Origin: Thermoanaerobaculia bacterium
GTDB lineage: Bacteria > Acidobacteriota > Thermoanaerobaculia > Multivoradales > Multivoraceae
NCBI GenBank assembly: GCA_022826745.1
Contig: JAJDUI010000012.1
Coordinates: forward strand, 69,378 to 133,377
DNA: 64,000 nucleotides
Reading direction: 5' to 3'
In this document: positions 7,471 to 32,770 of the stretch, piece by piece
How the letters are laid out: each line of letters starts with the position of its first letter
Position numbering within the stretch: the stretch's first letter is position 1
Translations under genes and position numbers: made by a program
Notes under the pieces: model-generated
Told to the model about the DNA's origin: nothing
The model's database searches: none
What the model saw: only the letters and a program-made list of their open reading frames with translations

Positions 7471-7494
7471 CGACCTCCCCCGCATGCGGGACGG

Positions 7495-10346: not shown

Positions 10347-10425
10347 TCCGATGCACTACGCACTGCGTACAACCAGGATCAGTCGGACCGATCCGCAGCG
10401 CGAAAACGGACTAGGATGAAAGAAG

Positions 10426-11970: not shown

Positions 11971-11998
11971 AGCGGCTGGGCAGGCGGCGGTAGTCCGA

Positions 11999-12766
11999 AT
12001 GCGTCAACGGCGGCTGATCGGGATCGTCGGCGGCCTCGGGCCGTTCGCCCACATCGACTTCGAGCGGAAGCTCCTGGCCGCCGCGAGCGAACTGGTCGGC
12101 GCCCGGCGCGACCAGGACTTCCCTCAATGGGTGCTGTCGAGCATCCCGCAGACACCGGACCGGACGGAGGCGTTCTTCGGCGAAGCGGAGGATCCGACGC
12201 CGTCGTTGAGTCGGAGCCTGGAGCGGTTGCGAGGCGCCGGGGCCGACTTCGCGGTCGTCGCCTGCAACACGGCGCATCTGTTCCTGGAGCGGCTGCGGGA
12301 CGAGAGTCCCCTGCCGATCATCAGCCTGATCGAGACGACGGCGGACGAGGCGGCGCGCATCGCGCCGGGAGGATCGGTGGGATTGCTTGCCACGTCCGGA
12401 ACGCTCCGCTCGCGGCTGTACCACGATCCTCTGGAAGCTCGCGGGCTGCGGGCGGTGAGCCCGCTTGGCTTCGACGACGGCGAGGAGTTGCAGCTTCGCT
12501 GCGTGATGGAACCGATCTACGGGCCCTGGACCGACGGACGACACCAGGGCGGTGGGATCAAGACGGATGGAGGGTCGGCGCGGGCGCGGGCGCTGCTGGA
12601 GCAGGCGGCGGGGCGGTTGGTCACGGAGGGCGGCGCCGACGTCCTCGTGGCGGGGTGCACGGAGATTCCACTGGCGCTTGAAGGGCCAGAGGTCGCGGGG
12701 CGGCCGTTGCTGGATCCGGCGGCGTTGCTGGCTGGGGCGGCGATCAGACGCGCGTACGACCTCTGA
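11999..12766 (+). CDS. aspartate/glutamate racemase family protein
   Basis: 255-aa ORF with 'IGIVGGLGP' and the two catalytic-Cys motifs 'VVACNTAH' and 'VAGCTEIP'. Confidence 0.85.
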   Translation: MRQRRLIGIVGGLGPFAHIDFERKLLAAASELVGARRDQDFPQWVLSSIPQTPDRTEAFFGEAEDPTPSLSRSLERLRGAGADFAVVACNTAHLFLERLRDESPLPIISLIETTADEAARIAPGGSVGLLATSGTLRSRLYHDPLEARGLRAVSPLGFDDGEELQLRCVMEPIYGPWTDGRHQGGGIKTDGGSARARALLEQAAGRLVTEGGADVLVAGCTEIPLALEGPEVAGRPLLDPAALLAGAAIRRAYDL

Positions 12767-20199: not shown

Positions 20200-20227
20200 C
20201 GCCGCCCACCAGGAAGGTCGGGCAACC

Positions 20228-23200
20228 GTGATCGCTGCTCCTGGTGAAGGCTCCGGCCCGGCGCGACTCGCCGCCCGGCGGCCAGTAGCCGTCACGGTTA
20301 CCGCCCTGGCATGCGCCCTGGTGGGCTGGATGTCATGGCGCGAACTGCCCATCGATCTCCTCCCCGACCTGCGCTCGCCGACGATCGTCGTCGCCGTGCG
20401 CTCCGGCGACCGGCCGCCGACGGAGATGGAGCGGCTCTACGGCGAGCAGGTCGAGCAGCGCCTGTTCACCGTGCGCGGCATCCGCGAGGTGCAGCAGGTC
20501 GCCCGCACGGGCCGCCTGATCGCGACCGTCCGCTTCGACTGGGAAGCCGACATGGACCTGGCCCTGATCGAGGTTCAGAAGTCGATCAATCCGGTCGCGG
20601 CCGACGCGGAGGTCGACGAGGTCCTCGTCCGCCAACTGGATCCGAGGCAATCCCCGGTCATGACCCTGGGTCTGGCCGCCGAGCCGGACGGTCCCGATCT
20701 CGCTGAGCTCAGGCGCCTGGCCCGCCGGCAGGTCGCGCCCGCCATGGAGCAGCTCGCCGACGTCGCCGAGGTGAGGGTGCTTGGCGGACGGGAGCTGGAA
20801 GTGCGCGTGCGGGTCGACCGCTACCGCATGCAGGCGTTCGGCGTCACCCTGGGTCAACTCGAGCAGCGGCTGGTGGCCGAGAACGTCGACATCGACGCCG
20901 GCACCCTGGAGGACCGGGGCCAGGTCTTTCTGGTCCGCGGCATCTCGCGTTTCCGCAATCCGCGCGACGTCGAGCGCGTCGTCATCCGGTACCGAACGCA
21001 AGCGGGCGCCGCGGGCCAGGAGACCCGCCAGCCGATCCGGGTATCCGACGTCGCGGAGGTCGAAGTCGCCGACGCCGAGATCGACCACCTGGTGCGGGTG
21101 AACGGCCGGGAGGGGGTCGGCCTGCAGGTGTTCAAGGAGGCCGGCGCGAACACCGTCGAGGTTTCGCGCACCGTCAGATCGGCGCTCGAAGACCTGGAAC
21201 TCGACCTGCCCCGGGTCGAGGTGTCCATGGTGAACGACGACGCCGCCCTAGTCGAGGACGCGATGGCCGACCTGCAGAACGCCGCGCTGGTCGGCATCGC
21301 GCTCGCGATCGTCGTGCTGGTCCTGTTCCTGCGCTCCTTCGGTCCGACCGTCGTCGTCGCTTCCGCGGTGCCCGTTTCCCTCTTCGTCGCCCTGTTCGCG
21401 ATGCGCCTCTGGGACCACTCGCTGAACATCATCACCCTGGCGGGCCTCGCCCTCGGCGCCGGCATGCTGGTAGACAACGCGATCGTCGTCGTCGAGAGCA
21501 TCCACCGGCGCCACCGGCCCGGCGTGCCGGCGGCCGAGAGCGCCGCCCGCGGCACCGGCGAGGTCGCCGGCGCGATCGCCGCCTCGACGCTGACCACCTG
21601 TGTCGTCTTCCTGCCCGTCCTCTTCGTGCAGGGGCTGGCCGCGCGTCTGATCGAGGGCATCGCCTTCACCGTCACCGCGTCGCTGGCCGCTTCGCTCGCC
21701 GTCGCGATGATGCTGATTCCGGCCCTGTCGCGCTGGTTCCTGCCGCGCGCCAAGCCGGGGGCCGGCACCGACGCCGGTGAAGCGGCGGCCGAAGCCGCCG
21801 ACGCAGGGTCGACCGGCCCGGGCGACGCGGACGAGCGTCCCCTCGGCTGGGCTTTCGGAGCGCTGGAGCGGCTCGTGCTCTTCCTGCTGCGCCTGCGCTG
21901 GGTCGTCGTCGGCGCGGCCGTACTCGCCGCCGCGGTCGCGGTGAACGTCCTGCTCGGCCTCGGCAGCGAACTGCTGCCGCCGGCCGACCCGCGGCAGTTC
22001 TCGGTGCGCATGGTCGGACCGCCGGGCCAGCGGGTCGAGGCGACGGCGGCCGCCGTATCCACTCTCGAGGAGGCGGTCCGCCAGGCCGCTGGAGAGCACC
22101 TTGAGGCGATCCAGGCCGAAGTCGGCCGCTTGCCCGAGGATGACCGGCTCGTGACGACCGAACTGACCGAGGAGAACACGGCCCGACTCCTGGTGCGGAT
22201 GTCGGCCGAGGGTCCCACCGGGAGCCAGATCGTCGGCGCCCTGTCTTCGAGCTTCGCCGATCTGCCGGGCACGGAGATCGAATGGGAGGTCGGCACCTCC
22301 GCGCTGGCCGAAGCGCTGGGTTCGTCGGGCCCGCCGATCGTGGTCGAGATCGCCGGCCAGTCCCTGCCCGACCTGCGCGCCGCGGCGACCAGCCTGCGCG
22401 GCTCGCTCGCCGCCAGCGAGGAACTCTGGAACGTCCGTTCGTCCTTCGAGGGCGGCCCGCCCGAACTGCGGATCGAACTCGACCGGGCGATGGCCGACGG
22501 TCTGGGCGTGGACCTGGAGACGATCGCCCGCGTGCTCCAGTCGGCTCTCGACGGACGCAAGGTCACGCTGCTTTCCGTTGGCGACGAAGAGCGCCACGTC
22601 GTCCTTTCGCTGCCCCAGCCCAGGCCCGAGGAACTCGCCGGACTGCGCTTCACGAGCAGTGACGGGGCCGACCTCGTCCTCGGTCAGGTCGCCCGTTTCG
22701 TACCCACCGAAGGGGCGCGGGAGGTCTTCCGCCGCGACCAGCGCCGCGTGGCGCAGGTGACAGCCAGGATCACCGAGGGAAGCGACTACCCCAGGGCGAT
22801 CGCCGCCGCGAACGACGCCATCTCGTCCACCGAGCTGCCCCCCGGATTGATTGTCAGGCTCGCCGGGGAGGAGGAGGAACGGGAGCGGGCAACCTCGGAA
22901 CTGCGCCTGGCCGGCCTGCTGGCGATCGTCCTCGTGCTGATGGTCCTGGCAGGCACGTTCGAGTCCCTGCTGCAACCGCTCACCGTGCTGTTCGCCATCC
23001 CGCTGGCCCTCGTCGGCGTCGCCTGCACCCTGGGACCGCTTGGGCGGCCGGTCGGGGTCATGGCCCTGCTCGGCCTGATCGTGCTCGCCGGCGTAGCAGT
23101 CAACGACGCCGTCCTGCTGATCGCCGCCGCGCGGCGGCTGATGGCCGCCGGCGTCGAGCGGCGAGCGGCCCTGGCCCGCGCCGCTGCGATCCGGCTTCGG

Positions 23201-23413
23201 CCGATCCTCATGACGACGCTCACCACGGTGCTGGTCCTCGTGCCGCTCGCCGCCGGCGCCGGGGAGGCGGCTGAATTGCGGAGCCCGATGGCCTACACGA
23301 TCATCGGCGGCATCGTGACCTCCACCCTCGGTTCGCTGCTGGTGCTGCCCTGCCTGTACCTCATCCTGGCCGGCCGTGGCGGCGGAACGCGACGCACGGA
23401 AGCCGAAGCCTGA
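20228..23413 (+). CDS. RND family efflux transporter permease
   Basis: 1061-aa ORF with the AcrB-like N-terminus 'RRPVAVTVTALACALVGWMSWRELPIDLLPDL'. TM4 reads 'GLALGAGMLVDNAIVVVESI', and the two-fold 6-TM plus large-loop organisation is present. Confidence 0.9.
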   Translation: MIAAPGEGSGPARLAARRPVAVTVTALACALVGWMSWRELPIDLLPDLRSPTIVVAVRSGDRPPTEMERLYGEQVEQRLFTVRGIREVQQVARTGRLIATVRFDWEADMDLALIEVQKSINPVAADAEVDEVLVRQLDPRQSPVMTLGLAAEPDGPDLAELRRLARRQVAPAMEQLADVAEVRVLGGRELEVRVRVDRYRMQAFGVTLGQLEQRLVAENVDIDAGTLEDRGQVFLVRGISRFRNPRDVERVVIRYRTQAGAAGQETRQPIRVSDVAEVEVADAEIDHLVRVNGREGVGLQVFKEAGANTVEVSRTVRSALEDLELDLPRVEVSMVNDDAALVEDAMADLQNAALVGIALAIVVLVLFLRSFGPTVVVASAVPVSLFVALFAMRLWDHSLNIITLAGLALGAGMLVDNAIVVVESIHRRHRPGVPAAESAARGTGEVAGAIAASTLTTCVVFLPVLFVQGLAARLIEGIAFTVTASLAASLAVAMMLIPALSRWFLPRAKPGAGTDAGEAAAEAADAGSTGPGDADERPLGWAFGALERLVLFLLRLRWVVVGAAVLAAAVAVNVLLGLGSELLPPADPRQFSVRMVGPPGQRVEATAAAVSTLEEAVRQAAGEHLEAIQAEVGRLPEDDRLVTTELTEENTARLLVRMSAEGPTGSQIVGALSSSFADLPGTEIEWEVGTSALAEALGSSGPPIVVEIAGQSLPDLRAAATSLRGSLAASEELWNVRSSFEGGPPELRIELDRAMADGLGVDLETIARVLQSALDGRKVTLLSVGDEERHVVLSLPQPRPEELAGLRFTSSDGADLVLGQVARFVPTEGAREVFRRDQRRVAQVTARITEGSDYPRAIAAANDAISSTELPPGLIVRLAGEEEERERATSELRLAGLLAIVLVLMVLAGTFESLLQPLTVLFAIPLALVGVACTLGPLGRPVGVMALLGLIVLAGVAVNDAVLLIAAARRLMAAGVERRAALARAAAIRLRPILMTTLTTVLVLVPLAAGAGEAAELRSPMAYTIIGGIVTSTLGSLLVLPCLYLILAGRGGGTRRTEAEA

Positions 23414-23426
23414 CCGGGAACGCGCC

Positions 23427-26400
23427 GTGAAAGCAGGTCTCGACACGCTCGCCATCCGCCGTCCGGTCGCGGTGTCGATGTTCTTCGTCGGCCTCGTCCT
23501 GCTGGGGGGCTTCGCGTGGCAACGGCTGCCGGTGGAGCTCTTCCCCGCGCTGACGGGCGATTCGCTCTACGTCAGTTTCTTCCGTCCGGGCAGCGAGCCG
23601 GAGACGGTGGAACGCGAGATCCTGATGCCGCTCGAAGCCAGGGTGCGAACCCTGCCCCGGGTGGCCGAGACCTGGGGCGAGGTCACCGGCTCCTCCGGCA
23701 GCTTCACCGTCCGCTTTGAACGAGGCGTCGATCTCAAGGTGCGGGAACTCGAGATGCGCCGCATCGCCGCGGATCTGGCCCGCACGCAGCCGCGCGACGC
23801 GTTCCTCGACGTGCAGTCCGACGACACGAGTGTGTTCTCGAGCTTCGCCATGATCCTGCAGGCGACCGGTTCGGACGACGAGGACGCGCTGCACGACCTG
23901 GTCGAGGAACTGATCACGCCCCGGCTCGCCGCGGTGCCCGGGGTCAGCCAGGCAATGGTGGGCGGCGGCGCCGCTCGCCAGTTGACCGTGTGGGTCGACC
24001 CGAACCGCTGCGCGGCGCTCGGCGTGACGACGGAGGAGGTCACCGCGGCCGTACGCGGCGCGGCCGGACGGCTTCGCTACCTCGGCAGCCTGGAGGACGA
24101 AGCCGGGCGAACGGCCGTGATGCTCGACGGCCGTCCCGTCGGCACCGTGTCGATGGGCGAGGTCCGGGTCGTCCCCGACCGCCCGGTGCTGGTCCGGCAC
24201 GTCGCCGACGTCGAGATCGGTTCCGGGCGTCGCCAGATGCTCTACCGCGTGAACGGCGAGCCATCCGTCGGCGTTCTCGTGTTCCAGGAGGAAGGCGCGA
24301 ACCTGGTCCGCCTCGGCCGCGACCTGCGCCGCCGTATCGAGGAGATCAACGAGGAGTTCACCCCGCTCGGGATTCGCCTCCTCGTCAGCTTCGACGCCGC
24401 CGAACTGGTCGAAACGCAGATCGACCGGCTGCGGAACCTCGGCCTGTCGGGTTTCGCGATCGCTCTCCTGGTCCTGTTCCTGTTCCTTCGCCAGTGGCGC
24501 GCCGTGGCCGTGGTCGCGGTCGCCGTACCGGTCAGCCTGGCCGTCGCCCTTTCCTTCCTCTACGTGGCCGGCCTGTCGCTCAACCTCTTCACTCTGTTCG
24601 GTCTCGCCGTCGGCATCGGACTCATCGTGGACAACAGCGTCGTCGTGTACGAGTCCGTCCAGCGGCGCCTGGAACGCGGCAGGAGCCCCGACGACGCCGC
24701 CGCGGGCGGCATTCGCCGCACCGGCCGCGCCATTGTCGCCGCTTCCGTCACGACCGGGATCGTCTTCCTGCCCGCAGTCATCGTCGACCTGGAGTCGTCG
24801 CTGGTCCAGAACCTGATCGGGCTCCTGTCACTCGCCATCCTGCTGCCCCTGTTCGGCTCGCTGCTCGTGGCAATCGGCCTGGTGCCCCTGCTGGCGCGCC
24901 ATCTCGCCGCACCGGCGGCGATCCGCCGGTTGAGCAAGCTGCGCCAACGTCGCGAGCGCTTCGGCGGCAAGGCGCCGCCGGACCCCACCCGAATCCTCTT
25001 CGCGGGCGTGCTCGCATCCGCGCTGCGCCGGCCGGCGAGCTGGATCACCGGAGTCGTGACCGCCGTCGTCCTGAGCGTCATCGCCGCCCTGTTCCTCGTC
25101 GCTTCCAGCGGACCGGGTCAGGCGCCGATCGCCGACCAGGTCCAGCTCTCCGTGCGCCTGCCGGAGGGACGCGGCAGCCTCGAGTCGGCGGTCCGGGCCT
25201 TCGAACGTCTCGAAACGGTCCAGGAGGTGGACGGCGTAGACCGCGTGGAGAGCATGATCCGGGAAGAAGGGGGATCGCTGACCGTCCACCTCGTGGACGA
25301 AGACGAACGGCCCGAGGACCTGACGGCGGCCTTCGTCCGTAGACTCCTGCGGCCGCCCGCCCGCCGCGCCGGCGTCGAACTCCTGAATCCGGGCGAGGGA
25401 GAAGGACCGGGCGGCCGTGGTGGCGGCGGCGGGGGCGCCCAGGAACTGCTCGGCGGCGGCCCCTCCCGAGTCGTGCTCTCCGGCAACGACAACGAACAGT
25501 TGACCGACCTCGCGGCCCAGGTCACGGAGCGGTTGCGGGAGATCGAGGGCATCGCGAGCGCCTACCCGGCGGTGCGCCCGGGGCCCGATGAACTCCACGT
25601 GAGTCCGAACCGCCGGGCCTTCGACACCTTCGGCGTGCTGCTGGACGAGGTGTTGCCCATGCTCAATCTGGCCGGCCGGGAAGGCACCCGGATCGCCACC
25701 GGCTTCCCGCTGGCCAGCGGACGGGAGCTCCCGATCGTCGTGCAACGGCAGGAGAGCCAGCGCGACGAAGCGCAGTTGATGGACGGCAGCAGCTTCAACC
25801 GCGACGTCTCGCTCAGCGGCCTGCAGCGGCTCCGCGTCTCGACCGGGATCGGCGTGCTGCCGGTCGCCGCCCTGGCGCAGGTGCGGCAGGCGCCTCCCTC
25901 CCCGGTCATCACCCACCACAACGGAGTCCGCGAACGCGAGGTGCTGTACACGTTGTCGCAGGACGTGCCGCGGCGGGGCCCGGCCCGTGACGCGTTCGAC
26001 CGGAGTCTGGACGAAGCGATCGCCAGCATTCACCGGCCCGCAGGCACGACGATCGCGCTCGACCGCTCCGAGGAAAGCACGAACTGGTTCCGGCGCATCG
26101 CCGTGCCGGTCGTTCTTCTCGTCTTCCTCGTGCTGGCCGTGACGTTCGAGTCGATGACCCTGCCGATCCTCGTCCTCATCGCGCTTCCGCTCGCCCTGCT
26201 CGGTTCCGTGTGGGCGCTGGTCGTGACCGGCATGGGGTTCGAGGCGATGGCTCTCCTGGGGGCACTGGTGCTGCTGGGACTCGCGATCAACCCGGCCGTC
26301 CTGCTCGTCGACCGGATGCAGCAGCACACCCTGGGCGCCGGCTGGAGCGCCGGCGCGGCCGCACTCGCCGCGGTCCGCGAGCGGGCCCGTCCCGTGTTGA

Positions 26401-28232
26401 TGACGTCCGCCACGACGATCGCCGCCCTGGCGCCCCTCTCTATCTCGACCGGCCGCGAGAACGAACTCTGGCCACCCTTCGCCACGCTCGTGATCGGCGG
26501 CCTTCTGACCGCGACCGTGCTGACGCTGCTCGTCATCCCCGTCGGCTTCGTCTTCCTCCGCCGGCTCGACGAGCTGTTCAGTCGCGTGGGCCCCTGGGTG
26601 GTGCTCACCTGGCTCGGCGCCGTCATCGCGACCACGGCGCCTCTGTTCGCGTTCGGCGTGATCGAGTCGCTGTTCTGGCAGGTCACCACGACGGTGCTCA
26701 TCGCCGGCGCGCTGCTGGGTCTCACCGTCTGGCTGCTGCCGAAACCGGCGACGCCGGAACCGGAAGCCGTCAGCGGGCCGCCCAGGCTCGTCGTTCGTCA
26801 CCTGCGCAAGACGTACGGCCTTCCCGGACCGGTGCGCCGGGCGCTGCGAGCTTCCACGGAGTTCGCCAGGCGCGTCGCTTCCGCCGGCGGCCAGGCGTTC
26901 CATCCGGCCGACGCGCGCGACCGGCTCCTGCCCCTGTTGCTGCTGCTGGCCGGCGCGATCACCCTGGCCGTGCGCATCCGCGGCGGTCTGGTCATCCTCG
27001 GCATCTGGATCGCGATCCTGCTCCTCGGCTCCAGCCTGCTGCGCGAGATCCGGCGGGCCCGCGGCCACGCCGACGCGCTGGGGCGCGTGAAGCCGGGCGG
27101 CATCGAGGGTGTGCTGACGGCCCTGCTGCCCTGGGGGATCCTCGCGTGGCTGGTCGGCCCGGAGATGGTCGCCGACCCGGAGATCGCCGGCTTCGTCGCC
27201 CTGGCCATCGTCTCCGCGATCATCCTGCTGATCCAGCTCGGGCGGCGTACGGCACGCGTGGAGACGATGCGCCGGGACCAGAAGACGTCTCGGCGCCGCC
27301 GCGCCCGGGGCCTGCGCGGCCAGATCCTCCGTCTCTGGCGCGCCGCCGCAACCAAGCTCTTCGGCCTCGACCTGCCGATCGACACCGTAAAGGCCCTGGC
27401 CGCGGTCAGCTTCGAGGTCGACCGCGGCATGGTCGGCGTGCTCGGCCCGAACGGCGCCGGCAAGACGACCCTGCTGCGGCAGTTGACCGGCATCCTGGAC
27501 TCGACCCGGGGCCGCATCACGCTGGGCGGCGTGCCGCTGCTCAGCGTCCGCAAACGCCTCGCGCGCTACGTCGGCTACCTGCCCCAGGACGCCGGCCTGC
27601 CCCCTCGTCTGACCGCCCGCCAGTACCTCGAGTACTACGCCGCGCTCTACCAGATCGACGCCTCCGAGCGGGCCGAGCGCATCTCGACCCTGCTGCGGGA
27701 GGTCGGTCTCGACGAGCGGGCCGACGAGCAGATCGGCGGCTACTCCGGCGGCATGCGGCAGCGCGTCGCGGTGGCGCGCACCCTGCTCCGACTGCCTCCG
27801 ATCATCGTCGTCGACGAGCCCACGGTCGGCCTCGATCCCCGGGAACGGGTCCGCTTCCGCAACCTGCTCTCGCGTCTGGCCAAGGACCGGATCGTCCTGT
27901 TCTCCACCCACGTCGTCGAAGACGTCGCCGTGGCGTGCGAGCGGGTCCTCGTGCTGACGCGCGGCCGCATGGTCTTCGACGGCCATCCGGCGGCCCTGTC
28001 GCGGGAAGCGGAGGGCCGGGTGTGGTCGTGGCGGACCGCGGACGGCGGCGAGGCGCCGGATCTGCCGGAAGGCGCGGTGCTGGCTGACCAGAAGCCGGAA
28101 GCCGACGGCACCAGCAGCCTGCGCGTGCTTGCCGCGGCCCGTCCCGACGAACGGGCCGAGCCGGTCGAACCGACCCTGGAGGACGGCTACCTGTGGCTCG
28201 CCCGGTCGGTGCGTGGAGAGGCGCCGGCATGA
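23427..28232 (+). CDS. RND efflux permease fused in one ORF to extra TM segments and a C-terminal ABC ATPase domain
   Basis: Likely GTG start at 23427, 13 nt after the previous stop ('VKAGLDTLAIRRPVAVSMFFVGLVLLGGFAWQRLPVELFP'). The RND body runs to about nt 26580 (TM4 'GLAVGIGLIVDNSVVVYESV'). Two TM helices follow, then the ABC-like strand 'PRLVVRHLRKTYG' (about 26781), a ~190-aa hydrophobic insert, and a complete NBD. The NBD has Walker A 'GPNGAGKTT' (about 27444), 'YSGGMRQRV', 'IIVVDEPTVGLD' and 'LFSTHVVED'. The frame is open throughout. Confidence 0.75.
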   Translation: MKAGLDTLAIRRPVAVSMFFVGLVLLGGFAWQRLPVELFPALTGDSLYVSFFRPGSEPETVEREILMPLEARVRTLPRVAETWGEVTGSSGSFTVRFERGVDLKVRELEMRRIAADLARTQPRDAFLDVQSDDTSVFSSFAMILQATGSDDEDALHDLVEELITPRLAAVPGVSQAMVGGGAARQLTVWVDPNRCAALGVTTEEVTAAVRGAAGRLRYLGSLEDEAGRTAVMLDGRPVGTVSMGEVRVVPDRPVLVRHVADVEIGSGRRQMLYRVNGEPSVGVLVFQEEGANLVRLGRDLRRRIEEINEEFTPLGIRLLVSFDAAELVETQIDRLRNLGLSGFAIALLVLFLFLRQWRAVAVVAVAVPVSLAVALSFLYVAGLSLNLFTLFGLAVGIGLIVDNSVVVYESVQRRLERGRSPDDAAAGGIRRTGRAIVAASVTTGIVFLPAVIVDLESSLVQNLIGLLSLAILLPLFGSLLVAIGLVPLLARHLAAPAAIRRLSKLRQRRERFGGKAPPDPTRILFAGVLASALRRPASWITGVVTAVVLSVIAALFLVASSGPGQAPIADQVQLSVRLPEGRGSLESAVRAFERLETVQEVDGVDRVESMIREEGGSLTVHLVDEDERPEDLTAAFVRRLLRPPARRAGVELLNPGEGEGPGGRGGGGGGAQELLGGGPSRVVLSGNDNEQLTDLAAQVTERLREIEGIASAYPAVRPGPDELHVSPNRRAFDTFGVLLDEVLPMLNLAGREGTRIATGFPLASGRELPIVVQRQESQRDEAQLMDGSSFNRDVSLSGLQRLRVSTGIGVLPVAALAQVRQAPPSPVITHHNGVREREVLYTLSQDVPRRGPARDAFDRSLDEAIASIHRPAGTTIALDRSEESTNWFRRIAVPVVLLVFLVLAVTFESMTLPILVLIALPLALLGSVWALVVTGMGFEAMALLGALVLLGLAINPAVLLVDRMQQHTLGAGWSAGAAALAAVRERARPVLMTSATTIAALAPLSISTGRENELWPPFATLVIGGLLTATVLTLLVIPVGFVFLRRLDELFSRVGPWVVLTWLGAVIATTAPLFAFGVIESLFWQVTTTVLIAGALLGLTVWLLPKPATPEPEAVSGPPRLVVRHLRKTYGLPGPVRRALRASTEFARRVASAGGQAFHPADARDRLLPLLLLLAGAITLAVRIRGGLVILGIWIAILLLGSSLLREIRRARGHADALGRVKPGGIEGVLTALLPWGILAWLVGPEMVADPEIAGFVALAIVSAIILLIQLGRRTARVETMRRDQKTSRRRRARGLRGQILRLWRAAATKLFGLDLPIDTVKALAAVSFEVDRGMVGVLGPNGAGKTTLLRQLTGILDSTRGRITLGGVPLLSVRKRLARYVGYLPQDAGLPPRLTARQYLEYYAALYQIDASERAERISTLLREVGLDERADEQIGGYSGGMRQRVAVARTLLRLPPIIVVDEPTVGLDPRERVRFRNLLSRLAKDRIVLFSTHVVEDVAVACERVLVLTRGRMVFDGHPAALSREAEGRVWSWRTADGGEAPDLPEGAVLADQKPEADGTSSLRVLAAARPDERAEPVEPTLEDGYLWLARSVRGEAPA

Positions 28233-28906
28233 TCACGGTGCTGCGGACCTCCGCGGTCCTGCTCGCCGGACGCAGGTACTGGTTGCTGCCATTCCTGCCT
28301 CTCGTATGGCTGGGAATACAGGCCGTCATGCTGGTGGCCGGGATGCGGCCCAGCGTGGAGCCGGTGGCCGCCCAGAACGCCCTGATCGGCGTGCCGGTGG
28401 CGGTTCTCGCCATCTTCCTGGGCGGGCGCACGATCACCGGCGAACTCGACCAGCACAGCCTGGAGATCGCCTACACCGTGCCCGGAGGCGCCCACCGCGT
28501 CTGGCTCGGCAAGCTCGCCGCCGCCATCCTGATGCTGCTCACCAGCCTGGTTCTCCTGGCCGTCGTCACCTATGCCTTCTTCACCGACTTCCCGGTCCTG
28601 TCGAGCCTGTACGGCGCCACCCAGGGAGTCGTCTTCTACCTCGCGGCGGCGATGGGCTTCGGAACGCTGTTCCGCAGCGAGGTTGCCGGCTCCCTGGCCA
28701 CCGTCGGCCTTCTCGGCCTGAACAGCCTGCTCAGCGCGCTCCGCATCTCACCGTTCTGGAATCCGCTCACCGTGGAAGAAGCCGACGCGGCGCAGATGCT
28801 CGCGCTGAACGTTCAGAACCGCATTGGCGTCGCTCTCGCGATCGCGGCGATCGTTGCGCTCACCTTCAGCCGAGCGGAACGTCGCGAGAAGATGCTCGCC
28901 GGCTGA
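28229..28906 (+). CDS. 6-TM ABC-2 type permease (copy 1)
   Basis: ATG overlaps the stop of the fused ATPase (ATGA, 28229-28232). It has the ABC-2 style motif 'ITGELDQHSLEIAYTVPGGAHRVWLGKLAA' and multiple TM segments. It is a paralogue of 29784-30467. Confidence 0.75.
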   Translation: MITVLRTSAVLLAGRRYWLLPFLPLVWLGIQAVMLVAGMRPSVEPVAAQNALIGVPVAVLAIFLGGRTITGELDQHSLEIAYTVPGGAHRVWLGKLAAAILMLLTSLVLLAVVTYAFFTDFPVLSSLYGATQGVVFYLAAAMGFGTLFRSEVAGSLATVGLLGLNSLLSALRISPFWNPLTVEEADAAQMLALNVQNRIGVALAIAAIVALTFSRAERREKMLAG

Positions 28907-28990
28907 ACGCAGCCTTCGTACTCGATCTGACACGCAGCCACCCGCCACCCCGCCCCGCTCAGGTCACTCCACCGCAAGCGCACTCCGTTT

Positions 28991-29008
28991 TCCGTCTAGA
29001 TCCATAGG
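28991..29008 (+). promoter_or_regulatory. conserved 18-nt motif upstream of peptide gene 1
   Basis: TCCGTCTAGATCCATAGG is identical at 16/18 positions to 30576-30593 in the equivalent intergenic region of the duplicated module. It lies 157 nt upstream of the ATG. Its function is unknown. Confidence 0.35.
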
Positions 29009-29164
29009 CGGTCCACCGCCGCCGCAAGCGCCCCTGGGCGTTGCGGCGCTCCGGACCTGTGGAGGTCTTCCGCACGCGGAGGATCTTCCGCCGATCCACG
29101 TCGGCTGTCTGCCCGAACCGGGCCGACGGCAACACGAGACCTATGGAACGAAAGGAAACGAATC

Positions 29165-29464
29165 ATGATGAAGAAGATCCTGCCTGTTGCAGTGACAACA
29201 CTGGTGCTTGTGCTGAGTGCTGGTAGTACGTTCGCAGAGCCACCGGACCCCGCCGCCCCAAGCGACACATCCGGCATCGACTACGACCAGTTCCAACGAC
29301 TCCCGGACGCCGAAATGGCGGCAGTGACCGGAGGCGCCTGGTGGTCCGGAGGCTGCACCGGCGTCATTCGCGGGGCTGGCTTCATTCTCTGGTTGCATGG
29401 TCTTGCCGGCAACCCGGTCCAACAGGGTGTTGGGCTCTACATGCAACAGGTGGAGTGTGCGTAG
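29165..29464 (+). CDS. small secreted peptide precursor 1 (Sec signal plus double-glycine-type motif plus 42-aa two-Cys core)
   Basis: 99-aa ORF with RBS GAAAGGAA. Signal peptide 'MMKKILPVAVTTLVLVLSAGSTFA'. 'LPDAEMAAVTGG' fits the L(-12) E(-8) M(-7) V(-4) G(-2) G(-1) pattern. The core is 'AWWSGGCTGVIRGAGFILWLHGLAGNPVQQGVGLYMQQVECA'. It is a paralogue of 30727-31008. Confidence 0.6.
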   Translation: MMKKILPVAVTTLVLVLSAGSTFAEPPDPAAPSDTSGIDYDQFQRLPDAEMAAVTGGAWWSGGCTGVIRGAGFILWLHGLAGNPVQQGVGLYMQQVECA

Positions 29465-29485
29465 CCGGCCCGTCTTCTGCCGGCT
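29463..29485 (+). terminator. hairpin overlapping the stop codon of peptide gene 1
   Basis: AGCCGGC (29463-29469) / GCCGGCT (29479-29485) form a perfect 7-bp stem with a 9-nt loop, followed by TCAGTT. The T-tract is weak. Confidence 0.35.
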
Positions 29486-29745
29486 TCAGTTGACGACACT
29501 CGCCGCCTTCTCTCTGAGGTCCCCGAGGGACGGACAGACTGCATAACGCGGCTCTCACTTTGACAGGCGCGATGACGATGTTCATTAGTCCACAAAGCCA
29601 CTTCCAAATGGGGGCTGCATCACCTGCGGCACAAGGGCGTCAATCGGCCCCACGTGCCTCTCCAAGTGGGCGCATCATCTTCGTCGCCATCGCGCCGTCG
29701 TCGTCCGTCTCGCTTCATCAGCTCCCAGGTACCAAGCACAGCAAG

Positions 29746-29787
29746 ATCTGGCTCGCTCGGGCAGCGGTCGTTGCAGCCCCGGCATGA
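29746..29787 (+). pseudogene. remnant of an ABC ATPase 3' end retained in the duplicated module
   Basis: 'ATCTGGCTCGCTCGGGCAGCGGTCGTTGCAGCCCCGGCATGA' (IWLARAAVVAAPA*) aligns with the 3' end of the fused ATPase at about 28189-28232 ('YLWLARSVRGEAPA*'), including the ATGA junction. Upstream of about 29740 I see no NBD similarity. Confidence 0.45.
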
Positions 29788-30467
29788 TCACGATCATCCG
29801 ACTCTCCGCAGTGCTCCTCGGGGGCCAGCGCTACTGGCTGCTACCCCTGTTGCCCCTGCTGTGGCTGGCGGGCCAAGCAATGCTGCTCGTCGCCAACGTT
29901 CGGCCGAGCTTCGAACCCGTCGCCGCACAGAACACACTGATAGGAGTGCCAGTCGCGGTCCTCGCAGCGTTTCTGGGCGGCCGGATCATCGCTGGCGAAC
30001 TCGACCAGCGCACAATCGAGATCGCCTACACAGTACCCGGGGGTACCCGCTTCGTCTGGTTTGGGAAGCTCGCAGCCGCGGCCTTGCTCCTGGCTGCCAG
30101 CGCGGCATTGAGCGCGGCGTTGACGTTCGCTCTCTTCACTCCGTTCCCCGTCCTCCAGACTCTCTATGGGGCAGTGCAGGGAGCCCTCTTCTCCCTGGTA
30201 GCGACCAACGGGCTCTCAACACTCTTCCGCAGCGAAACCGCAGGTGCCATGGCCGCCACCGTTGTACTTCTCGTGAACGTTCGGTTCCCAACGACCCACT
30301 TCCGCGTCTCGCCGTTCTGGAACCCGCTCACGGTGGAGGGAGCAGACGCCGATCGGTTGGTCGCGATGGCCGTCCAGAACCGGATCGGGATCGCGCTCGT
30401 CATTGCCGCCATCCTCGCGCTCACCTTCGCCCGCGCGGAACGCCGCGAGCGAATGCTGGGCGGCTGA
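29784..30467 (+). CDS. 6-TM ABC-2 type permease (copy 2, paralogue of 28229-28906)
   Basis: 227-aa ORF colinear with copy 1: 'MITIIRLSAVLLGGQRYWLLPLLPLLWL...IAGELDQRTIEIAYTVPGG...SPFWNPLTVEGADA...QNRIGIALVIAAILALTFARAERRERMLGG'. By eye about two-thirds of residues are identical. No cognate ATPase gene is adjacent. Confidence 0.75.
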   Translation: MITIIRLSAVLLGGQRYWLLPLLPLLWLAGQAMLLVANVRPSFEPVAAQNTLIGVPVAVLAAFLGGRIIAGELDQRTIEIAYTVPGGTRFVWFGKLAAAALLLAASAALSAALTFALFTPFPVLQTLYGAVQGALFSLVATNGLSTLFRSETAGAMAATVVLLVNVRFPTTHFRVSPFWNPLTVEGADADRLVAMAVQNRIGIALVIAAILALTFARAERRERMLGG

Positions 30468-30575
30468 GATCGCACCCGGTACTCCTCACTGGCGCGCAGG
30501 TGCACCCCTCCCGCGCGAACCACGCCATCGTCCGCGCGGCCTCGTCTTCACGAGTGCCAAGTCCGTCCGCTCGAA

Positions 30576-30593
30576 TCCGTCCAGATCCATAGA
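30576..30593 (+). promoter_or_regulatory. conserved 18-nt motif upstream of peptide gene 2
   Basis: TCCGTCCAGATCCATAGA is the second copy of the motif at 28991-29008. It lies 134 nt upstream of the ATG. Confidence 0.35.
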
Positions 30594-30726
30594 TGGCGTA
30601 CGACCGTTCGTTGCGCCGAGAACCGCGCCGGTGAGTCGACGGGCGAAGCACCTCCAAGGCGAAGCCACGCCCTCAAGAACCTCGCGGGATCAACCAAAGA
30701 ACAAGAACCGAGAAAGGAACCCAACA

Positions 30727-31008
30727 ATGAAGAGAGCCCTGACCATCGCACTGGCGGTCGTCGTGTTCGGCGCCGGCACTGTGTTCGCACTGGCGCCGCA
30801 CCCGACTCCAGTGGACGACGCCGCGAACATCGATGCCTACGACCTCGGACCGCTCTCCGAAACGGATCTCCGCGCCGTCTTCGGCGCTCGATGGACCGCG
30901 TGTACCGCCGACCTTACGATGGCCCAGATGCACTTCATGGCCGGCAATCCAGTCGCGGGAGCCTTCCATCTCCTCGCGGCGTATCTCCGTCCGGCGATCT
31001 GCTCGTGA
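30727..31008 (+). CDS. small secreted peptide precursor 2 (Sec signal plus G-A double-glycine-type motif plus 39-aa two-Cys core)
   Basis: Internal ATG of track ORF 30403..31008, with RBS GAAAGGAA. Signal peptide 'MKRALTIALAVVVFGAGTVFALA'. 'LSETDLRAVFGA' fits L(-12) D(-8) L(-7) V(-4) G(-2) A(-1). The core is 'RWTACTADLTMAQMHFMAGNPVAGAFHLLAAYLRPAICS'. It shares 'IDxYD', 'AGNPV' and both Cys positions with peptide 1. Confidence 0.6.
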   Translation: MKRALTIALAVVVFGAGTVFALAPHPTPVDDAANIDAYDLGPLSETDLRAVFGARWTACTADLTMAQMHFMAGNPVAGAFHLLAAYLRPAICS

Positions 31009-31128
31009 GAACGGGCGGAGGAGCCGGAGCTTGACTACCGTCGTCCGGCACGCCGCCGTGCTGCTCGGGGGTCCAGGGAATCGAGGTTCAGATGACCCGT
31101 TGAATCACCGCGAATCCCGACTACCGGG

Positions 31129-32205
31129 TCAGAACTCGCAGGCCAGTCCGGGGTAGCGGAACACGACGCCCGGATCGAGCTGCTTCGGCTTGTTCGCCGC
31201 CTCTTCGGCGCGGGCGCCGGCGAGCATTCCCTCCATCCCGTAGTTGCCCTCGTGACAGGCGTACTCATAGATCGCGTCCTCGGTGCGCTTGAGGGGAATC
31301 GACGCCGTCCAGGGCTTCGTCCATGTCCCCGGATCGTTCACCGTGACCTCCCATTCCAGCGTCTCCGGGTCTGTCAGGGTGAACCGCTCGGTGATCGTGA
31401 GCTGCTCCGAAGAGCCCATGAAGTCGTTCTTCTCCGAGTAGTTCGCCGTCTCGACCACCAGCGTGTCGCCGTCCCAGTGGCCGCGGGAGTCGCCGTTCCA
31501 GAGGCGGACGTCGTCGTCGAGAACGGACTCGTCGCCCAGCCGAATGACGCGGGCGTCGTGGATCATCTCCTGGTGGATGACGACGTGGTCCGGGCTCTGG
31601 AAGAACTGGTGGTAGCCGTTGTAGCCGGCGAAGATGAAGGGGGCGCCGTAGCTGATACAGCGCTCGGCGATCGGGCGGTCGAGCCAGGAGTCGGCCGGAT
31701 GCTCCATCAGGTGCTTAACCCGCTTGCAGAGACGCTCCCTCGCCGGTTCGGTGAAGGGCGGGATCAGTCCGTCCGGTGGATCGACGACCAGGGAGGTGCG
31801 CTTCGTGAAGTAGCGGTCCGCGATCCAGAACTGGTTGTAGTTGCCGGTCGTCGGGTCGTATGAGGTCGCCTTGGTCCGCTCGATCGCAGCCAGGACGAGC
31901 TGGTCGCCGAACAGGGCGTCGGCGCCCGGGTTCGTCGCCTCGGCGACGGCCGCCATCAGCTCCTGGAACTCCTCGTCCGTCAGGCGTTCCTTGCCCGCCC
32001 ATGCGGCGGGGCGCTGCAGCGGCGTGCCGTTGTTGTTGGCCCACACGCCCTGGAGGTCGGGATGGCCGTAGGCGGTACGCGGGATCGTCCAGTCCGCGTC
32101 TGCCGCGTTGTTGTTCGCTGCCGGCACCGCACCGGCGGCCAGCCCGAGCAACAGGGCCATCACGCCAATCGTCGCCACGGCTCTCAACCGTTCGTTCTTC
32201 CTCAT
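31129..32205 (-). CDS. conserved hypothetical secreted protein
   Basis: Likely start is ATG at 32205 ('MRKNERLRAVATIGVMALLLGLAAGAVPA'), preceded by GGGAGGG; the track ORF extends to 32319. I recognise no catalytic motif. The C-terminal region reads 'YEYACHEGNYGMEGMLAG'. Confidence 0.6.
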   Translation of the reverse strand: MRKNERLRAVATIGVMALLLGLAAGAVPAANNNAADADWTIPRTAYGHPDLQGVWANNNGTPLQRPAAWAGKERLTDEEFQELMAAVAEATNPGADALFGDQLVLAAIERTKATSYDPTTGNYNQFWIADRYFTKRTSLVVDPPDGLIPPFTEPARERLCKRVKHLMEHPADSWLDRPIAERCISYGAPFIFAGYNGYHQFFQSPDHVVIHQEMIHDARVIRLGDESVLDDDVRLWNGDSRGHWDGDTLVVETANYSEKNDFMGSSEQLTITERFTLTDPETLEWEVTVNDPGTWTKPWTASIPLKRTEDAIYEYACHEGNYGMEGMLAGARAEEAANKPKQLDPGVVFRYPGLACEF

Positions 32206-32275
32206 CCGACTACCCTCCCAAGACGGGTGAACATCGCGTCCTCCGATCATAGCCGCCGGTTCACGGCGATCCTCG

Positions 32276-32770
32276 TCACGTCCAGCCCCAGGCGTTCGCT
32301 TCGTCATCCCAGAGCGCATAGCAATCAGTCGCCAGACCGGCCTCGAGGACCCAGTTGGGCATGTCGGTCACCAGTCCGGTGGGGCCCTGCTGGACCGTGA
32401 TCGGGCGGCCGTTCGCGGTCCAGGCCGACAGCACGTGACCCAGCACCTGCGCCCCCTCACCTTCTCCGGACTCCACGTCGAGCGAGTCGATCCGTACCCG
32501 CCACTCGACGTTCTCGCCGGAACCGTCAGGGCGAATGAAACGAAGCTCGTCGCCGTCGGCTTCGAAGTCCGCCACCAGGTCGATCGATTCGATCTGCGCG
32601 ATGAACGACGCGCGCAGCGTGTCCACGTCCGGCTGAGGTTCCGACGGACCGCAGGCCGCGATCGCTCCGACCAGAGCCAGGGACAACAGACCGCCGCCGA
32701 GAAGCCGGCCGCCGGCGCGAGGACGCGCCGCGGACCGACCTGACTGCCGTGTTTCGACGATGTGGAACAT
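32276..32770 (-). CDS. hypothetical lipoprotein
   Basis: Only the last 164 codons of track ORF 32276..34639 look real. The start is ATG at 32770 ('MFHIVETRQSGRSAARPRAGGRLLGGGLLSLALVGAIAACGP', lipobox AIAAC). The upstream part of that ORF is antisense to the MFS gene. Confidence 0.55.
   Translation of the reverse strand: MFHIVETRQSGRSAARPRAGGRLLGGGLLSLALVGAIAACGPSEPQPDVDTLRASFIAQIESIDLVADFEADGDELRFIRPDGSGENVEWRVRIDSLDVESGEGEGAQVLGHVLSAWTANGRPITVQQGPTGLVTDMPNWVLEAGLATDCYALWDDEANAWGWT

Follow-up and report, generated by a model that had tools for sequence, protein, structure and literature searches.

Results

A peptide gene within a transporter operon

The window, by which we mean the whole 64-kb stretch of DNA analysed, contains an operon in which two small peptide genes, here called peptide 1 and peptide 2, lie among genes for RND-type pumps and ABC-2-like permeases (Table 1). 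In the 1618-aa fusion protein encoded just before permease A, ACR_tran matched residues 25-1061 (E 3e-147) and ABC_tran residues 1343-1483 (E 9e-28), the ATPase domain resembling those of the GldA/DrrA type. This RND::ABC fusion is conserved in 28 species genomes, and permease A is present in 27 of them. Pfam detected no C39 peptidase, TolC-like channel, kinase or modifying enzyme among the 29 large ORFs of the 64-kb window, no outer-membrane channel, regulator or canonical peptidase-containing ABC transporter (PCAT) in the window as a whole, and no RiPP-type modifying enzyme in the operon or its flanks; the only such candidate was the thioredoxin-like oxidoreductase of the separate C39 clusters described below.

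An imperfect-palindrome box precedes each of the two peptide genes. It occurs twice in the 64-kb window, where 0.02 matches were expected; its columns are invariant in an alignment of 12 upstream regions, and in related loci it was found only 5′ of cassette peptide genes. Scans of the cassette for sigma-70 promoters and terminators gave nothing beyond chance, and an Rfam scan of positions 28800-31300 found nothing.

Table 1 Features of the operon and of the peptide 2 precursor, with positions in the window
Feature	Position	Strand	Basis or remark
Upstream part of the operon	15584-23413	+	Pfam
ABC-2-like/Golvesin_C protein, 1177 aa	within 15584-23413	+	Pfam
Membrane-fusion protein	19114-20199	+	Pfam
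Second RND pump	20228-23413	+	Pfam
RND (AcrB-type)::extra TM segments::ABC-ATPase fusion, 1618 aa	23376-28232	+	Pfam
ABC-2-like permease A, 225 aa from ATG at 28229	28229-28906	+	Pfam; conserved partner of the fusion
Paralogous palindrome box	28991-29007		Upstream of peptide 1
Peptide 1, 99 aa, paralogue, canonical ...AVTGG motif, hypervariable core	29165-29464	+	ORF, BLASTP
ABC-2-like permease B, 227 aa, upstream of peptide 2	29784-30467	+	Pfam PF12679, E 1.3e-6
Imperfect-palindrome box TCCGTCCAGATCCATAG	30576-30592	+	135 nt 5′ of peptide 2
Ribosome-binding site AGGA	30715-30718	+	8 nt 5′ of ATG; sequence
Peptide 2 gene, pre-pro-peptide, 93 aa + stop	30727-31008	+	ORF, homologues, codon-position GC
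Putative Sec-type signal peptide, residues 1-21 (MKRALTIALAVVVFGAGTVFA)	30727-30789	+	Cleavage after VFA inferred
Acidic pro-region, residues 22-54, 6 D/E and 1 K/R	30790-30888	+	Composition
Double-glycine-type leader motif LSETDLRAVFGA	30853-30888	+	Sequence, family conservation
Predicted mature core R55-S93, 39 aa	30889-31005	+	AF2, conserved Cys
Permease C remnant, first 15 codons, LTTVVRHAAVLLGGP, 45 nt	31031-31075	+	blastn against L001 and L060; translation

Peptide 2 is a real and conserved gene

Translation of the ORF gave the 93-aa product of the preliminary description, and its relation to peptide 1 as a paralogue was borne out by BLASTP (32% identity, E 1e-11). We found 13 full-length homologues with identities of 60-95%; all homologues are 93-95 aa long, and the gene is intact also in three lineages that lack permease C, the permease encoded 3′ of peptide 2 in some relatives. 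Orthologues of the peptide 2 type occur in 8 of the 28 species genomes and persist across species at identities as low as 51%. GC by codon position is.68/.52/.78, a coding-type periodicity, with GC3 below that of core genes. The ribosome-binding site is kept as GAGAAAGGA in orthologous upstream regions, as is the ATG. Synonymous divergence (dS) equals that of the flanking genes. The dN/dS of peptide 2 is 0.4-0.8, with about 0.5-0.6 set against 0.02-0.15 for neighbouring genes; it rises to 0.84 in the pro-region, which apart from the leader motif is the least constrained segment, and on these values the constraint on the peptide is weak. In the pair of loci that retain permease C (L001-L060) the ratio is 0.40, and in lineages without it 0.50-0.61. 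Pfam and NCBIfam profile scans gave no match to peptide 2 (E<=1) and no curated bacteriocin model.

The preliminary description had allowed that the true product might be longer and start at 30403. A 201-aa ORF does begin there, and spurious long ORFs are frequent in this 69% GC genome. Its extension, however, has a flat GC profile by codon position (.63/.69/.65), and the intergenic length varies among orthologues by non-multiples of 3. The uniform length of the homologues, the conserved ribosome-binding site and ATG, and a dN/dS below 1 also speak for the shorter product. We rejected the longer ORF and kept the 93-aa one; it is scarcely credible that the latter is non-coding or a mere part of the 201-aa ORF.

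Signal, leader and core of the precursor

By inspection, the N-terminus of peptide 2 resembles a signal peptide in its parts: an n-region with K2 and R3, the h-region LTIALAVVVF, a break at G15/G17 and the c-region GAGTVFA/L. AF2 predicts a helix at residues 2-20. Alignment with peptide 1 agrees with the earlier proposal that a signal-peptide-like N-terminus has been retained. The cleavage site proposed then, ALA/P, is unlikely because its +1 residue would be Pro, and signal peptidase I does not tolerate Pro there. The alternative VFA/L, with V-x-A at -3/-1, fits better, and VFA/LAP aligns both with the TFA/EPP found in peptide 1 and with AFA/EPP, the consensus of the family; from this we infer that signal peptidase would cut after VFA21. 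A lipoprotein identity was considered and rejected, as peptide 2 has no lipobox Cys.

Residues 21-44 are predicted by AF2 to be disordered. The motif LSETDLRAVFGA that follows was found at the position given for it before, with L43 at -12, D47 at -8, L48 at -7, V51 at -4, G53 at -2 and A54 at -1, and it agrees with the double-glycine consensus (hydrophobic -4/-7/-12, acidic -8, Gly at -2 and Gly, Ala or Ser at -1). In a six-frame translation of the 64-kb window, the motif class L...[DE][LMIV]..[VIL].G[GAS] matched only peptides 1 and 2, that is, two matches against 0.41 expected from codon shuffles. The leader of peptide 2 is not at the extreme N-terminus, being preceded by 42 residues, and in this it departs from the usual 15-30-aa, Sec-free double-glycine leader; a signal-like segment precedes the motif in nearly all family members.

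The core is hydrophobic (GRAVY +0.55, pI 8.1) and carries Cys59 (codon 30901-30903) and Cys92 (codon 31000-31002); the mass calculated for it is 4204.009 Da when oxidised to one disulfide and 4206.025 Da when reduced, and that of the pro-form is 7606.68 Da. In the AF2 model, helices span residues 45-71 and 75-92 with pLDDT 86-90 across 61-80, suggesting a helical hairpin with its turn at G73-N74-P75 (30943-30951). A Foldseek search of the model against the PDB returned only generic helical hairpins (best E 2.9). We also considered that the Met/His-rich segment MAQMHFM might mark a metal-binding periplasmic protein, and set this aside: H69 is conserved only in the peptide 2 type (18% family-wide), and the RND protein scores higher as a multidrug-type than as a heavy-metal-type pump.

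A narrow peptide family with a conserved leader

We collected 112 unique peptides from Ca. Multivorans/Thermoanaerobaculia, and peptide 2 belongs to this narrow, undescribed Acidobacteriota family. In all members a Sec-type signal is followed by an acidic pro-region, at whose end the double-glycine-type motif stands, and then by a hydrophobic core of ~40 aa with two Cys. In the leader, -12 is L in 82%, -8 is D/E in 94%, -7 is M/L/I in 96%, -4 is V/L/I in 88% and -2 is G in 98%; Cys59 is present in 100% and Cys92 in 96%. In the family of peptide 1, the leader is conserved and the core hypervariable.

The preliminary description had argued that a few elements were selectively conserved between the two peptides and therefore functional. 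For the leader-type motif and the Cys near each end of the core this is borne out family-wide, and relatives of peptide 2 adjoin stand-alone C39 peptidase genes, which supports the motif as genuine. AGNPV, by contrast, is a feature of a subfamily (G73 88%, N74 57%, P75 59%, V76 33% of the 112 peptides), and IDxYD is not conserved across the family. The view that GA is an accepted variant of the double glycine holds for peptide 2; over the whole family the -1 position is loose, with G/A/S/T in 77% and R/K/E in 23%. The latter residues are disfavoured at -1 by canonical C39 proteases. The other conserved leader positions, hydrophobic at -4/-7/-12, acidic at -8 and G at -2, are those that C39 proteases need (PMC10885120).

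Peptide cores are inherited with the downstream permease

The peptide-plus-permease units form a variable array, in which a core is inherited together with the downstream permease. It had been supposed that each peptide is paired with the permease upstream of it. The core of peptide 1 instead co-varies with the downstream permease (B): in 283 of 300 locus pairs, cores and permeases were concordant, cores at least 60% identical going with downstream permeases at least 80% identical. The upstream permease A keeps an identity of 97-100% and merely tracks the host phylogeny. Inside the peptide 1/permease module dS is 0.6-1.0, against 0.13-0.25 in the flanks, and the co-variation could reflect linkage inside recombination blocks rather than function. 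A Mantel-type test showed that the identities of core and permease were only weakly correlated by rank (rho 0.16, partial 0.14, 44/2000 permutations). Most pairs lie at a saturated floor, so that the relation is bimodal and better described by a 2×2 table.

The arrays hold 0-4 peptides and also contain decayed relics, and terminal peptides with no permease downstream are common. In 7 of the 28 species the fusion and permease A are present and peptides are absent, and several loci (L003, L005, L006, L063-L065 and L071) have peptide 1 without peptide 2. The two peptides are separated by a permease gene. In both respects the arrays are unlike two-peptide (class IIb) bacteriocins, whose paired peptide genes always occur with each other and share one immunity gene.

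Permease C (230 aa) is intact 3′ of peptide 2 in loci L001 and L060. In the window, this permease, which is peptide 2's own, has been deleted. The deletion occurred at least twice independently and peptide 2 stayed intact each time, which speaks against the permease being an immunity factor that peptide 2 cannot do without. Here peptide 2 has no dedicated, adjacent and co-varying permease, as the upstream permease B follows peptide 1.

Stand-alone C39 peptidases adjoin distant relatives

Distant family members lie directly 3′ of stand-alone Peptidase_C39 genes in L009-L013 and L068. The gene order is fusion, C39, peptide in L009, L012 and L013, C39 and peptide in L010 and L011, and fusion, peptide, permease, C39, peptide in L068. 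More than 20 C39 loci hold related peptides with a signal, a GG-type motif and two Cys; one to four of these follow the peptidase gene, succeeded by genes for a polytopic membrane protein and an ABC ATPase. The stand-alone C39 proteins have the catalytic Cys and His and match the solved double-glycine proteases LahT150, PCAT1 and ComA. A tblastn search with them against the window and all syntenic loci gave no match.

About 42 of the 47 C39 genes encode only an N-terminal Arg-rich segment, a TM and the C39 domain. With 4-7 K/R before the TM and 1 after it, the catalytic domain is predicted by the positive-inside rule to face the periplasm. In 42 of the 47 loci, a gene for an anchored CxxC thioredoxin-like protein stands just 5′ of the peptidase gene, and profile searches matched it to StoA/DsbE-type extracytoplasmic oxidoreductases. 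One type of C39-linked peptide (L039/L042) has no signal peptide and would fit a cytoplasmic rather than a periplasmic protease. A C39 locus of this kind is present elsewhere in all 28 genomes (28/28) that bear the RND::ABC fusion; this co-occurrence is not specific, because it is lineage-wide and includes the 7 genomes in which the cassette is peptide-free.

Discussion

We judge the chance slightly better than even that peptide 2 gives rise, in two maturation steps, to a small bacteriocin-like peptide that is secreted and acts on membranes. A Sec-type signal would carry the 93-aa pre-pro-peptide across the inner membrane, where the signal would be cut behind VFA21 or kept as an anchor. To judge from its relatives, the leader L43-x3-D-L-x2-V-x-G53-A54 would then be recognised by a membrane-anchored, stand-alone, single-pass C39 peptidase, presumably encoded elsewhere on the chromosome beside the anchored thioredoxin-like oxidoreductase. 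Cleavage would free the 39-aa core R55-S93 as a hydrophobic helical hairpin, whose two Cys would be oxidised to a disulfide. The ABC-2-like permeases, probably powered by the one ATPase domain that is joined to the RND pump, may clear the peptides from the membrane of the producer as self-protection, and/or hand them over to the RND/adaptor pumps, which would drive them through the outer membrane. In this window peptide 2 is an orphan; with its downstream permease deleted and constraint weak, it may be only partly functional. More tentatively, Multivoraceae may possess an undescribed periplasmic double-glycine pathway, comprising Sec export, an outward-facing C39 peptidase, thioredoxin-like oxidation, RND::ABC expulsion and peptide-specific ABC-2 permeases; we hold this broader proposal to be possible and somewhat doubtful. 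In such a pathway one pump ATPase would serve an expandable, recombining set of permeases.

Peptide 2 could instead be a non-toxin partner of the ABC-2-like permeases or of the RND::ABC pump, namely a subunit, plug or specificity factor, in which case mutual binding would explain its co-evolution with the permease. Several observations fit such a role: the peptide 2 gene always stands among permease paralogues within the transporter operon; a core passes on jointly with the permease encoded after it; survival of an orphan without its permease is simpler to understand for a harmless subunit; and the AF2-predicted hydrophobic hairpin could lodge in the membrane. A partner of this kind would, however, be expendable in the 7/28 species that have the fusion and permease A and no peptide, it would vary in number from 0 to 4, and peptide 2 itself occurs in only 8/28 species. 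Related peptides also cluster with C39 and thioredoxin-like genes where no RND pump is present, and a protease-recognition leader, a hypervariable core and a high dN/dS are atypical of a structural subunit. We consider this reading rather unlikely. A related question is whether the family is bacteriocin-like and peptide 2 here is a decaying, functionally dead orphan, as the deletion of permease C down to a 45-nt remnant, the elevated dN/dS (0.5-0.6 against 0.02-0.15 in neighbours), the lowered GC3 and the decayed relics in other arrays might suggest. The ORF is nevertheless intact in every homologue, including the three lineages without permease C, the invariant residues, ribosome-binding site and upstream box are retained, dN/dS is similar with the permease (0.40) and without it (0.50-0.61), and the type persists across species down to 51% identity; a dead gene is in our opinion unlikely.

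A signalling role, in which peptide 2 is a secreted pheromone of the ComC/BlpC kind and not an antagonist, would account for the double-glycine-type leader, for the conserved upstream box that each peptide gene has of its own and for an allelic co-variation that recalls pherotypes; peptide 1 even matches ComC (PF03047, E 0.077) and BlpC (NF033215, E 0.023), in both cases below threshold and in the leader only. We regard this role as quite improbable, since no histidine kinase or response regulator is encoded in the operon or among the large ORFs of the window, what co-varies with the core is a permease and not a receptor kinase, and a hydrophobic core of 39-42 aa that is rich in Gly and Ala and contains a disulfide is what pore-forming bacteriocins, and not pheromones, typically have.

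The proposed bacteriocin-like peptide resembles several known systems in part. Microcin V (colicin V) is exported by the C39-ABC transporter CvaB together with CvaA and TolC. With class II microcins and bacteriocins, peptide 2 shares the leader (hydrophobic -4/-7/-12, acidic -8, G at -2 and G/A at -1), a core of ~40 aa that is hydrophobic, rich in Gly and Ala, unmodified and predicted to contain a disulfide, the link of its relatives to C39 proteases, and the combination of conserved leader and variable core. It differs from them in that the leader is internal, behind a Sec-type signal and a linker, and in that there is no peptidase-containing ABC transporter, the C39 protein being separate, single-pass and predicted to have its catalytic domain in the periplasm; peptide 2 is encoded next to ABC-2-like permeases and an RND::ABC fusion, and no curated model matches. 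The E. coli enterotoxin STII undergoes Sec export, periplasmic disulfide formation and then export by MacAB-TolC (PMC8277102). The heat-stable enterotoxins of E. coli, which between the Sec and MacAB-TolC steps are processed in the periplasm and oxidised there by DsbA, resemble peptide 2 in their pre-pro-mature layout with a Cys-containing mature peptide at the C-terminus, and resemble our proposal in periplasmic maturation followed by a tripartite-type pump that takes its substrate from the periplasm. They have no sequence kinship with peptide 2, whose pro-region carries a C39-type leader, and their pump MacB differs from the RND::ABC chimera with ABC-2 permeases, for which export is putative.

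FapD of the Pseudomonas Fap amyloid system is a periplasmic C39 peptidase (PMC5557850). Like the proteins predicted here, it is a stand-alone C39 cysteine peptidase outside the cytoplasm with Sec-exported substrates; those substrates are amyloid components lacking a canonical double-glycine leader, whereas here they would be small hydrophobic peptides with a clear one, and a thioredoxin-like protein accompanies the protease. The placing of ABC-2-type permeases beside peptide genes and the allele-specific coupling of a core with one permease recall LanFEG/BcrAB-type immunity transporters, from which the present system differs in that the ATPase is fused to an RND pump and common to several interchangeable permease paralogues, and in that peptide 2 persists though its own permease is lost. 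The polymorphic toxin-immunity cassettes CdiA-CT/CdiI, Rhs and the pneumococcal blp bacteriocin-immunity region likewise combine a conserved N-terminal part with a C-terminal part that varies and moves as one with the gene behind it, the break falling where leader and core meet, and they too form arrays with orphan and decayed modules; the modules here are ~40-aa peptides and multi-pass permeases rather than enzymatic toxin domains and small immunity proteins.

In the literature on RND-ABC fusions, stand-alone C39 bacteriocin systems and Ca. Multivorans, we found no description of this system. Double-glycine leaders are viewed as cytoplasmic export tags, which an ABC exporter cuts off with its N-terminal C39 domain as it transports the peptide. 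In the family described here a leader of the same design follows a Sec-type signal and is associated with a stand-alone C39 peptidase, predicted to be periplasmic, and with a disulfide oxidoreductase. The lineage consists of uncultured MAGs, several of which bear isolate names that suggest sponge or coral hosts (names only), and peptide-mediated competition in such host settings is largely unexplored. For peptide 2 itself the conclusion reaches less far: the gene is real, yet it is an orphaned and fast-evolving member of its family. If the pathway is as we propose, a whole class of peptides in Gram-negative phyla would escape present genome-mining rules for bacteriocins and microcins, which demand both a leader at the N-terminus and a transporter of the PCAT type. 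A substrate motif could then also be assigned to periplasmic C39 proteases, of which, to our knowledge, FapD is so far the only example and for which no recognition sequence has been defined, and the RND::ABC fusion with its interchangeable permeases would be a new pump architecture.

The peptide 2 gene and its reading frame

The gene for peptide 2, which closes the operon, is real. Its ORF encodes exactly the 93 residues quoted in the preliminary description, with the leader-type motif LSETDLRAVFGA placed, as stated there, at nt 30853-30888, and peptide 2 proved to be a true paralogue of the 99-residue peptide 1 (32% identity, E 1e-11). A start at 30403, giving a longer ORF, was ruled out because all 13 homologues at 60-95% identity are 93-95 aa long, GC by codon position is.68/.52/.78 in the ORF and flat (.63/.69/.65) in the in-frame extension, orthologous loci differ in the length of the permease B/peptide 2 spacer by non-multiples of three, and an AGGA 8 nt 5' of the ATG is conserved. 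The signal-peptidase site originally proposed, ALA|P, would put Pro at +1, which blocks signal peptidase I, and is thus unlikely; instead, VFA21|L22 aligns with TFA|EPP of peptide 1 and AFA|EPP of the family consensus.

A peptide family with an internal leader

When the six-frame translation of the 64-kb window was searched for the motif-class pattern L-x3-[DE]-[LMIV]-x2-[VIL]-x-G-[GAS], only peptides 1 and 2 matched, against 0.41 matches expected from codon shuffles. When 1.84 billion representative proteins were searched exhaustively with a profile, 28 clusters were returned, two of them junk repeats; clusters and fetched loci of related genomes together gave 112 unique peptides. The architecture is conserved across this family: a signal-like N-terminus is followed by a variable acidic linker, the leader and a hydrophobic, Gly/Ala-rich core of ~40 aa. 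In the leader, position -12 is L (82%), -8 D/E (94%), -7 M/L/I (96%), -4 V/L/I (88%) and -2 G (98%), while -1 is G in 51%, A in 23% and R/K/E in 23%. One Cys lies ~5 residues past the motif in 100% of the peptides and another at the penultimate position in 96%. Thus, among the four elements earlier regarded as selectively conserved, the leader and the Cys pair hold throughout the family but AGNPV and IDxYD do not (N74 57%, P75 59%, V76 33%; G73 alone is general, 88%).

An AlphaFold2 model of peptide 2 (45-sequence alignment, mean pLDDT 70) predicts a helix at residues 2-20, disorder at 21-44, a helix that starts at E45, spans the leader and reaches residue 71, then a turn at G73-N74-P75 and a second helix to 92, with pLDDT of 86-90 over residues 61-80. 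A Foldseek search of this model against the PDB gave no meaningful match.

The operon and its variable cassette

MAGs assigned to Candidatus Multivorans and to other Thermoanaerobaculia (phylum Acidobacteriota) are the closest genomes, and the locus is syntenic in related genomes. The first operon gene is followed by a membrane-fusion protein, an RND pump and the RND::ABC fusion, and then by permease A, peptide 1, permease B and peptide 2. The linker region of the fusion was found in 28 species-representative genomes, all Multivoraceae/Thermoanaerobaculia, where the fusion has a conserved length of 1598-1613 aa; no description of such a fusion was found in the literature searched. Permease A lies 3' of it in 27 of the 28 genomes, and the start/stop overlap of the two genes suggests that translation of the ATPase-bearing fusion is coupled to that of this conserved permease.

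Beyond permease A the arrays are variable, with 0-4 peptides alternating with permease paralogues and, in some, decayed peptide relics. The cassette is peptide-free in 7/28 genomes and carries the orthologue group of peptide 2 in 8/28. The relics have no intact core, indicating turnover of modules. Mobile or selfish elements also lie within or next to the cassette in several related loci (see table).

An invariant imperfect-palindrome box, TCCGTC[TC]AGATCCATAG (half-sites CCGYCTA/TAGRCGG), lies 135-158 nt 5' of every cassette peptide gene and is the sole block conserved between paralogous upstream regions that have otherwise diverged. It does not occur in the C39 clusters described below, has no match in Rfam and may be an operator or promoter element.

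Features of the window and of related loci
Feature	Locus	Positions	Strand	Description
Operon gene 1	window	15584-19117	+	1177 aa; N-terminal ABC-2-type membrane domain (PF12679, E 1.3e-4), C-terminal Golvesin_C
Fusion (operon gene 4)	window	23376-28232	+	1618 aa; complete AcrB-type RND pump 25-1061, ~280 residues with extra hydrophobic segments, GldA/DrrA-type ABC ATPase 1343-1483
Fusion/permease A overlap	window	28193-28232		permease A ATG at 28229 overlaps fusion stop 28230-28232
Palindrome boxes	window	28991-29007, 30576-30592	+	
Peptide 1/permease B module	window; L003-L008, L059-L089	29165-30467 (window)		polymorphic
Peptide 2	window	30727-31008	+	93 aa
Permease C remnant	window	31031-31075	+	first 15 codons, all that remains
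Neighbour gene	window	31129-32319	-	358-396 aa, signal-like N-terminus; 3' of cassette in all syntenic loci; no match in Pfam or NCBIfam
Peptide relics	L079, L082, L083, L088			between second and third permease; e.g. …LVLSVCPSVAVPPNSVVAG…GRVGDGYLWPA…
VapB/PIN toxin-antitoxin pair	L005; L006	11489-12158; 2226-2919		in peptide 2 slot
DDE transposase	L060	2672-4096		between permease A and peptide 1
IS21 and rve transposases	L009; L010	462-2281; 8433-9050		beside or interrupting fusion
Distant peptide P0074	L009/L012/L013			order fusion, C39, peptide
Distant peptide P0059	L010/L011			directly 3' of stand-alone C39
Distant family locus	L068			order fusion, peptide, permease, C39, peptide
C39 cluster	L039 (OZ242040.1)	7286-12627		conserved in about 40 similar loci, L014-L056

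Contrasting inheritance of peptides 1 and 2

In comparisons of closely related genomes, dS is 0.13-0.25 and dN/dS 0.02-0.15 for the flanking genes (fusion C-terminus, permease A, MFS transporter, RNR-like), and dS of peptide 1 and permease B reaches 0.6-1.0 between core types. The pre-pro part of peptide 1 can remain 86-95% identical while the core drops to 27-43%, which places a recombination break point at the leader/core junction; at least six unrelated core types occur behind the nearly identical pre-pro part. The peptide 1 core is co-inherited with the downstream permease: with thresholds of ≥60% identity for the core and ≥80% for the permease, 20 of 300 locus pairs were above both, 263 were low in both, and the 17 discordant pairs were mostly near the thresholds. 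The plain rank correlation between the two identities is weak, and physical linkage alone could contribute to the co-variation. This concordance pairs the core with the permease downstream and not, as had been supposed, upstream; permease A is 97-100% identical in the same comparisons. The pattern resembles polymorphic toxin-immunity cassettes.

Unlike peptide 1, peptide 2 has dS (0.10-0.33) equal to that of the flanking genes and is thus vertically inherited. Its dN/dS is 0.4-0.8 (signal 0.47, pro-region 0.84, core 0.49). In two related loci (L001 and L060) a third permease, permease C (230 aa, 92% identical between them), lies 3' of it; in the window this permease is deleted. Because the deletions in two other loci (L007 and L059) have different end points, permease C was lost at least twice independently, with peptide 2 left intact.

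A stand-alone C39 peptidase beside family relatives

No C39 peptidase was found in the window or the syntenic loci. Relatives nevertheless adjoin C39 and thioredoxin-like genes, and distant members lie directly 3' of a stand-alone Peptidase_C39 gene in three sets of loci (see table). A search with this family-adjacent C39 gave 47 loci within the lineage. In about 42 of these loci the C39 product consists solely of an N-terminus rich in Arg (4-7 K/R), a single TM helix, a stretch carrying one K/R and a C39 domain with Cys and His intact; this charge distribution predicts, by the positive-inside rule, that the domain faces the periplasm. The domain matches the solved double-glycine proteases LahT150, PCAT1 and ComA.

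In 42/47 loci the preceding gene encodes an anchored thioredoxin-fold protein with an invariant CGNC motif and cis-Pro, whose profile matches StoA/DsbE-type extracytoplasmic oxidoreductases. On the 3' side are 1-4 small ORFs, nearly all with a signal, a GG-type motif and two Cys, then a 528-aa polytopic membrane protein (39 loci) and, in the one locus checked (L039), an ABC ATPase. Among the cluster peptides, one type is rich in Pro and Cys (…CGCTPIPGCPFPIPWP…) and another has a classical GG leader at its N-terminus but lacks a signal (MNTTSTLIAILPEADLAAVTGG…). By accession comparison, a C39 locus is present in 28/28 fusion-bearing genomes; on OZ242040.1 the cassette (L001) lies at about 75-95 kb and the C39 cluster (L039) at about 650-667 kb.

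Interpretation

We consider it somewhat more probable than not that peptide 2 is a precursor, in pre-pro-form, of a bacteriocin-like hydrophobic hairpin that is secreted and undergoes two-step maturation outside the cytoplasm, and that in this genome the peptide has been left an orphan by the loss of its cognate permease. The pre-pro-form would be exported by Sec and cleaved after G53-A54 by the C39 predicted to face the periplasm, a disulfide may form in the core, the product may be antibacterial, and the permeases and pumps would presumably act in the same pathway. FapD is a precedent for a periplasmic C39 (PMC5557850), and enterotoxin STII with MacAB-TolC for the combination of Sec export with oxidation in the periplasm and export by a pump (PMC8277102).

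Several observations count against this reading: R/K/E at -1 in nearly a quarter of the family, a peptide type without a signal next to that same C39 (L039/L042), the tolerated loss of permease C, the weak constraint on peptide 2, and a window of 64 kb with no C39 and no outer-membrane channel. Peptide 2 might instead be a non-toxic partner of the transporter, which we regard as unlikely, or, slightly less likely again, a dead orphan copy, a reading to be set against its intact ORF where permease C was lost. A pheromone is improbable, and a mis-annotated ORF, given homologues of uniform length, is hardly credible.

The double-glycine leader, C39, two-step secretion, ABC-2 immunity transporters and polymorphic cassettes are already known. 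No description was found, in the literature searched, of their combination here: an internal GG-type leader preceded by a putative Sec signal, an anchored C39 that is predicted to face outward and has a thioredoxin partner, and an RND::ABC fusion whose permeases are interchangeable. The family and the system are of clear interest, and the peptide 2 gene, though real, is an orphaned member that evolves fast.
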